From Escherichia coli (lineage in GTDB: Bacteria; Pseudomonadota; Gammaproteobacteria; Enterobacterales; Enterobacteriaceae), in NCBI RefSeq assembly GCF_002854065.1, contig NZ_CP024147.1: 64,000 nucleotides of DNA, one strand, 5' to 3'. Shown piece by piece: positions 19,574-19,603 of this stretch. How positions within the stretch are numbered: position 1 is the stretch's first letter; the number at the start of each line of letters is the position of its first letter. The notes beneath the pieces were generated by a model. It searched no databases and was not told where the DNA came from. It was given only the letters and a program-made list of their open reading frames with translations. Position numbers and translations under genes: made by a program.

Positions 19574-19603
19574 CAGTATAGAGGGTTTGCGCGCCCTTGT
19601 CAC
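19574..19603 (-). promoter_or_regulatory. rnpB promoter
   Basis: On the minus strand GTGACA (-35), a 17-bp spacer, then TATACT (-10) followed by a GC-rich discriminator 8 bp upstream of the M1 RNA 5-prime end; the -35 overlaps the garK stop codon. Confidence 0.55.

Follow-up and report, generated by a model that had tools for sequence, protein, structure and literature searches.

The rnpB proximal promoter shares its -35 hexamer with the garK stop codon in Escherichia coli, a conserved overlap in which unrelated upstream genes end on the same TGA

The proximal promoter of rnpB, the gene for RNase P RNA (M1 RNA), has reportedly been studied in the Schmidt and Y. Lee laboratories, and work by Motamedi in 1984, Lee in 1989, Jung and Lee in 1997 and Park in 2002 is said, going by the titles, to concern initiation at this promoter and mutants of it. 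The titles from Jung and Lee and from Park et al. reportedly refer to stringent-response mutants of the rnpB promoter with the -35 region included, the 2002 paper being said to treat the stringent response of the promoter together with its -35 region, and a 2008 study by Ko et al. is said to deal with RNase E and the biosynthesis of M1 RNA. Some small RNAs, MicL and DapZ among them, are known to have their promoter within the 3' end of the coding sequence that precedes them. In RegulonDB, rnpBp is an intra-operonic promoter within the garP-garL-garR-garK-rnpB transcription unit. The rnpB start was mapped to position 3268614 of NC_000913.2 on the minus strand, with 1690 reads, by 5'RACE-seq on 5'-triphosphate RNA enriched with terminator exonuclease (Kim et al. 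2012, PMC3415461, Table S4). In CRISPRi experiments in LB, guides on rnpBp or rnpB caused a fitness defect, and guides on garK, garR, garL and garP caused none; these data come from LB without gar induction and are silent on interference at high gar expression. Four Fis sites have been reported for the rnpB promoter. The promoter, its start site, the garPLRK-rnpB unit, the essentiality of rnpB and the possibility of readthrough are already known, and what the present analysis adds is comparative only: the spread of the overlap between stop codon and -35, and its use by unrelated genes.

The window analysed here is the whole 64-kb stretch of E. coli DNA, in which garP, garL, garR and garK are followed by rnpB on the minus strand (RefSeq annotation of an identical record; Table 1). 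The rnpB match to RF00010 stands at 318.6 bits against a gathering score of 100 and spans the full model (positions 1-367 of 367). Upstream of the rnpB -35 lies the 3' end of garK, whose ORF gives an equivalog match to NF007668 of 842.8 bits against a cut-off of 686, over residues 1-381 of 381; the list of open reading frames has it as 19600..20826 (minus strand), that is, extended upstream with the stop unchanged. MG1655 has the identical layout (rnpB 3270216..3270592, garK 3270625..3271770), and the window matches it at 450 of 450 positions across rnpB, its promoter and the terminal 73 nt of garK, with 12 nt and 3 aa differences over the whole of garK. A 2-kb query around the rnpB promoter is 100% identical to strain CUWW06 and was found in 5424 of 5426 complete genomes, and of 5426 complete E. 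coli genomes, 5425 have the 96-nt garK-rnpB junction, 4997 of them at an identity of at least 99%. A GarK identity of 93-94% to two representatives labelled E. coli, considered as a possible divergence of the gene, merely reflects the distance to divergent Escherichia lineages.

Table 1. Features of the garK-rnpB junction and its surroundings (window coordinates)
Feature	Coordinates	Strand	Basis and remarks
-35 hexamer GTGACA of the rnpB proximal promoter	19603..19598	-	5/6 vs TTGACA; direct reading and promoter scanner
Spacer, 17 nt	19597..19581	-	upstream half varies between species, downstream half AAACCCTC conserved
-10 hexamer TATACT	19580..19575	-	5/6 vs TATAAT; direct reading and promoter scanner
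Discriminator GCGCGCC, 7/7 G+C	19574..19568	-	direct reading
Transcription start (G), mature 5' end of RNase P RNA (M1 RNA)	19567	-	Rfam model position 1 and mapped start
rnpB, RNase P RNA class A, 377 nt	19191..19567	-	RF00010, 318.6 bits, E = 1.3e-104; RefSeq
Intrinsic terminator of rnpB	19183..19152	-	12-bp hairpin AAAAACCCGC-UUCG-GCGGGUUUUU and U-run, 8 nt past the mature 3' end
garK (glycerate 2-kinase), last gene of garPLRK	19600..20745	-	RefSeq annotation of identical E. coli record
rsmI (16S rRNA C1402 2'-O-methyltransferase)	39946..40809	-	20 kb upstream of rnpB; stop TGA 39948..39946

On the minus strand the junction reads ...AAC GCG GGG TGA CAAGGGCGCGCAAACCCTC TATACT GCGCGCC G(+1)AAGCTGACC..., and the garK stop codon TGA (19602..19600) forms positions 2-4 of the rnpB -35 hexamer. 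The coding sequence thereby supplies 4 nt only of the core promoter, one sense base and the stop itself. The earlier note had described a near-consensus sigma-70 promoter reading into rnpB on the minus strand, with its -35 overlapping the garK stop. The hexamers, the 17-nt spacer and the G+C discriminator can all be read directly, the TGA lies within GTGACA, and the coordinates given were correct throughout, the interval 19574..19603 running from the -35 to the first discriminator base. The promoter scanner scores the GTGACA-17-TATACT pair as a 10/12 match, and sites of at least 10/12 with a 16-18-nt spacer occur only twice on the two strands of the window (128 kb of strand); about 8e-5 of them would be expected with a -10 ending 5-9 nt upstream of any one given base. 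The rnpB RNA starts 7 nt past the -10, as measured from the Rfam end to the hexamer position. The start reported by Kim et al. (2012) is the first base of rnpB, window position 19567, and the 50 upstream bases printed there are identical to the window. Comparison with a mapped start had been named beforehand as the refuting test; the E. coli K-12 start falls exactly on G19567, and the -10/-35 pair stands. Between rnpBp as listed in RegulonDB and the window there is no difference, the sequence and the mapped start being the same. The site thus shows what characterizes a sigma-70 promoter: near-consensus hexamers, a spacing of 16-18 bp, a mapped start 5-9 nt past the -10 and conservation of the elements. 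Inside garK there is also a weak promoter-like site (19787..19759, minus strand; TTGGCA-17-GATGAT, 9/12), about 190 nt upstream of the rnpB +1; titles in the literature mention 'tandem promoters' before rnpB, and this site may be one of them.

The rnpB terminator folds at -24.4 kcal/mol with z = -3.24 (19200..19140, minus strand), and the promoter and terminator scanner missed it on both strands, so that negative calls of this scanner need a manual check. The miss is probably due to pairing of the A-run with the U-run, which lengthens the stem and leaves a tail that is not T-rich. The 3' end of rnpB and its terminator are repeated in tandem with a 113-nt period (window 19047-19240, minus strand): 19047-19106 and 19160-19219 are 88% identical, 19119-19139 and 19220-19240 are 100% identical, and there is another, incomplete copy near 18850-18898. 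Descriptions of repeats 3' of rnpB date from the 1980s.

Conservation was assessed by scanning one genome per species with the exact first 23 nt of rnpB, which recovered at least 120 species of Enterobacteriaceae and Erwiniaceae. Among the matches listed, the promoter alignment anchored on +1 comprised the window and 120 species (121 sequences), with a 7-nt discriminator in 97 sequences and an 8-nt one in 23. The TGACA of the -35 was found in 120 of these 121 listed sequences, and the hexamer begins with G in 112 and with A in 8, T being absent from this position. Within the same listed matches, the 97 sequences with a 7-nt discriminator all have T-13, A-12 and T-8 in the -10, the discriminator's CGCGCC reaches 99-100% conservation, and the spacer is 40-70% conserved at -30..-22 and 86-100% at -21..-14 (AAACCCTC, 19588..19581). 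This profile, with its near-invariant core and variable spacer, is that of a working sigma-70 promoter. The A's at -20 and -19 are invariant in the listed sequences with a 7-nt discriminator, and the upstream half of the spacer is free. The conserved half AAACCCTC is a possible RNA polymerase contact or factor site.

The first -35 base deserves separate mention. After GGN or GCN codons, a T at this position would be synonymous and would give the consensus TTGACA. Its absence fits selection for a deliberately suboptimal -35, and points to selection on the promoter itself and not to neutral packing. Suboptimal -35 elements are described as one contributor to negative stringent regulation (PMC3152329, citing Park 2002), and a G+C discriminator, as a general statement, as typical of stringently controlled promoters (PMC3152329). 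The rnpBp discriminator, 7/7 G+C, is of this G+C-rich type. Judging from titles and citations, rnpBp would be under stringent (ppGpp/DksA) control.

The gap between garK and rnpB is 32 bp. No intrinsic terminator was found in these 32 bp, either by direct inspection for T-runs or by the scanner, which made no minus-strand call, and a direct check found no run of at least four T in the 233 nt before the rnpB +1. For the absence of a terminator the direct reading is decisive, since the scanner had also overlooked the true terminator of rnpB. Any polymerase arriving from the gar operon must therefore pass over rnpBp and go on to transcribe rnpB; the claim that gar transcripts run across the rnpB promoter holds, since readthrough is physically unavoidable over a 32-bp gap without a terminator, and it is consistent with the annotated five-gene unit garPLRK-rnpB. 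Given that gar guides caused no fitness defect in LB, growth in this medium is independent of uninterrupted gar-operon transcription.

The identity of the gene that ends on the -35 TGA varies among species. Among the matches listed, this TGA terminates GarK in 57 of 120 species (49 with full-length or flank-limited ORFs and 8 with partial or remnant ones) and RsmI in 36 of 120, in Pantoea, Erwinia, Tatumella, Mixta, Winslowiella and Izhakiella. The upstream protein of the Erwiniaceae is the 16S rRNA C1402 2'-O-methyltransferase RsmI (NF011570, 599 bits) and is unrelated to GarK. In nine further listed species the GarK or RsmI stop lies 6-45 nt upstream of the -35, and 18 listed species have a different co-oriented gene, ending 6-23 nt short of it and encoding GarR (NF008592), AgaR (NF040755) or a PfkB-type kinase. 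GarK has 381 aa whether it abuts the -35 or not, as seen in Buttiauxella, and the RsmI tail in E. coli, where the gene is no longer adjacent to rnpB, has the same length as in Erwinia (...EQQGE*). Neither protein departs from its usual length: the native stop of each coincides with the -35, and neither has been extended by reading on into the promoter.

A third, unrelated frame uses the same codon in E. coli strain UTME-10 (NZ_CP157104.1, 1905-3012), which carries an IS481-family insertion of about 1.1 kb directly upstream of the rnpB -35. The GCGGG target duplication ends at -37 (window positions of about 19604-19608) and the rnpB promoter is intact; garK has acquired a new tail, ...NAGV*, and the transposase ORF exits the element and stops on the -35 TGA. 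Three unrelated ORFs, encoding GarK, RsmI and an IS481-family transposase, accordingly end on one TGA. The insertion shows that viability does not require the sequence upstream of about -37. Having also displaced the reported Fis-site region by 1 kb, it amounts to a natural experiment on the promoter's need for upstream DNA.

In E. coli, a block of about 20 kb separates rsmI from the rnpB promoter (19603-39948, minus strand) and contains the yraH-K fimbrial genes, aga genes, the prlF-yhaV toxin-antitoxin pair, garD and garPLRK. Erwiniaceae lack this block, and their rsmI lies directly against rnpB. Among Enterobacteriaceae the content of the block is variable, GarR, AgaR or a sugar kinase adjoining rnpB in 18 species among the matches listed, and the rsmI-rnpB interval behaves as a gene-turnover hotspot bounded by the -35. 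A protein search with RsmI for outgroups listed close Enterobacteriaceae relatives of at least 88% identity. Metagenomes were scanned with a 26-nt conserved rnpB core, which gave 120 contigs without taxonomy; a co-oriented RsmI homologue, 45-84% identical to E. coli RsmI, lies just upstream in 42 of them and GarK in 6. For 34 of the 42 RsmI contigs the rnpB 5' end was taken from Rfam, and the RsmI stop lies 17-194 nt before it; 16 of the 34 contigs have the stop in the interval -17 to -36. In seven of the 34, four of them closely related, the stop is a TGA at exactly -35 or -36, at positions 2-4 of GTGACA, TTGAGG or TTGAAA with a 17-nt spacer; starts at these metagenome junctions are not mapped, and the promoter calls there are weak (6-9/12). 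One metagenome contig has a TGA directly before TATTAT. In two contigs, L133 and L136 (RsmI about 82% identical to E. coli), the rsmI frame reads GAG GGT GAC AAA TAG across the -35, so that rsmI passes GTGACA in a different frame and stops at the TAG in the spacer, a larger coding overlap with the same promoter. L179 (78-183) and L136 (3907-4010) each carry an ArcZ sRNA gene (RF00081) on the opposite strand, some 6-8 kb upstream of rnpB, which is consistent with an Enterobacterales-like origin of these two contigs.

The tight rsmI-rnpB junction is clearly widespread in distant metagenomic lineages, and because rsmI abuts rnpB in so many of them, this arrangement looks ancestral and garK looks like a later replacement. 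The simplest history would be an ancestral rsmI-rnpB pair into which the Enterobacteriaceae block was inserted between the rsmI stop and the rnpB -35. No published description of the rsmI-rnpB junction was found in the literature searched.

The explanation that we consider very probable is that the site is the known proximal, major sigma-70 promoter rnpBp, that the overlap with the stop reflects compaction against an immovable essential promoter, and that readthrough is minor. RNA polymerase would recognise GTGACA, the 17-nt spacer and TATACT and initiate at G19567, and with the start there the primary transcript would already bear the mature 5' end of M1 RNA; transcription would stop at the hairpin terminator (19183..19152), and the short 3' tail would then be trimmed. 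The non-consensus first -35 base and the all-G+C discriminator would be hallmarks of shut-down by ppGpp/DksA, that is, of stringent and growth-rate control. An essential promoter would stay fixed while the sequence upstream of it is free to change, and a TTGACA-type box contains TGA, so that an in-frame ORF reaching the promoter would end there. Polymerases from the gar promoter cross rnpBp and yield gar-rnpB co-transcripts, and the RNase P RNA supply of the cell would nonetheless come from rnpBp. The anatomy of the site, its mapped start, its conservation, the lack of a terminator and the reuse of the TGA by unrelated genes are established directly; we infer stringent control, compaction as the cause of the overlap, and the minor role of readthrough.

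This explanation has to be weighed against several others, of which the most basic is that the hexamer pair is a chance match, with the real rnpB promoter elsewhere and processing as the origin of the 5' end. Sites that resemble a promoter at 9/12 or better are indeed common (5 found against 2.2 expected in 2 kb). The rnpB pair, however, is one of only two 10/12 sites in the 128 kb of strand, its hexamers are correctly spaced to a mapped triphosphate 5' end, it is near-invariant in 120 of the 121 sequences among the matches listed, and CRISPRi against it is deleterious. The mapped start and the conservation refute the chance match, which we regard as having next to no probability. Another possibility is that the overlap is regulatory, either because gar polymerases, on induction of the operon, reduce the firing of rnpBp through occlusion or 'sitting duck' interference, or because co-transcripts are cut into extra RNase P RNA; RNase P supply would then be tied to sugar-acid catabolism. 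The lack of a terminator and the mere 32 bp between garK and rnpB would allow this, as would the annotation of garPLRK-rnpB as a unit, and a tight, terminator-free, co-oriented junction recurs in 120 of the 120 species listed and in many metagenomic lineages. Yet the upstream gene varies (GarK, RsmI, GarR, AgaR, a sugar kinase, an IS transposase), and with its identity not conserved, no specific metabolic coupling is conserved either; moreover, the abundant 5' end is the primary triphosphate end at +1, and dCas9 on the gar genes caused no fitness defect. Transcripts from upstream promoters were, in the 2008 work of Ko et al., reportedly degraded by RNase E and not matured. A regulatory overlap is accordingly quite unlikely in our view, and a functional role of the kind suggested in the earlier note, interference or processing of readthrough RNA, is unnecessary on the available data.

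The readthrough RNA could also contain a functional hairpin, serving as a processing site or insulating M1 folding from the upstream mRNA. A candidate stem of 7-8 bp pairs GGCGCGC (19595..19589) with GCGCGCC (19574..19568), holds the -10 in its loop and ends at the M1 +1. In the window, the sequence from the -35 to -1 adopts this stem at -14.2 kcal/mol; of the 80 distinct 36-nt haplotypes, 26 retain at least 6 of 7 pairs in this register, compared with 0-3 when the register is shifted; and Escherichia albertii has GGCGTGC/GCACGCC, a change on both sides. However, Klebsiella, many Citrobacter, Cedecea and many Pantoea have a disrupted stem, sequence of the GCGC type pairs with itself, and promoter function already accounts for the conservation of the discriminator. 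When spacers were re-dealt among discriminators in 2000 permutations, pairing was 4.378 +/- 0.047 compared with 4.375 observed, and 1128 of the 2000 permutations reached the observed value; permuted and observed pairing being equal, there is no covariation in the candidate -10 hairpin beyond column composition across the 80 haplotypes. A conserved structured element in the readthrough leader was therefore rejected, with no covariation and the stem missing in many genera, and a functional hairpin is very improbable. The last alternative starts from what compaction alone does not obviously explain, namely why GarK and RsmI, at normal length, end exactly on the -35 TGA. The terminator-free junction may itself be selected and not merely tolerated, through selection on co-transcription, which we consider unlikely. 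Were it so, the rnpB promoter would have sat within the last codons of a co-oriented gene, ancestrally rsmI, since before the sampled lineages diverged, and Enterobacteriaceae would have rebuilt the geometry of stop and -35 with garK after the insertion of about 20 kb. This would suggest a function for co-transcription or polymerase traffic, for instance back-up RNase P RNA from readthrough, or, alternatively, a link between rnpB firing and events upstream, either transcription or translation termination.

On the preferred reading of a fixed promoter and a compacted upstream gene, the overlap is real and strongly conserved, and is ordinary genome compaction; it would matter more only if readthrough proved functional. 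The picture of E. coli rnpB is unchanged by the present analysis. The comparative pattern illustrates how an immovable essential promoter can shape the end of any neighbouring gene. It also carries a caution for genome engineering: since the garK stop is part of an essential gene's promoter, the sequence from 19603 downstream has to stay intact whenever the 3' end of garK is deleted or tagged.

Among known systems, the rsmI-rnpB junction of Erwiniaceae and many other Proteobacteria shares with E. coli the promoter geometry and the stop TGA at positions 2-4 of the -35, and differs in that the upstream gene encodes a 16S rRNA methyltransferase and not a sugar-acid kinase. With stringent promoters of the rrnB P1 and tyrT type, rnpBp has in common a stable RNA product, a G+C-rich discriminator, a non-consensus -35 and a start at the 5' end of the stable RNA; its spacer, in contrast, is 17 nt where theirs is 16 nt, and upstream of it lies garK coding sequence with no evident A+T-rich, UP-element-like sequence. 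The promoters of 3'-UTR-encoded sRNAs likewise overlap the end of a co-oriented coding sequence, have their own start and are accompanied by longer co-transcripts. Unlike those of MicL and DapZ, whose products are regulators, rnpBp drives an essential ribozyme, and only 4 nt of coding sequence enter its core promoter.
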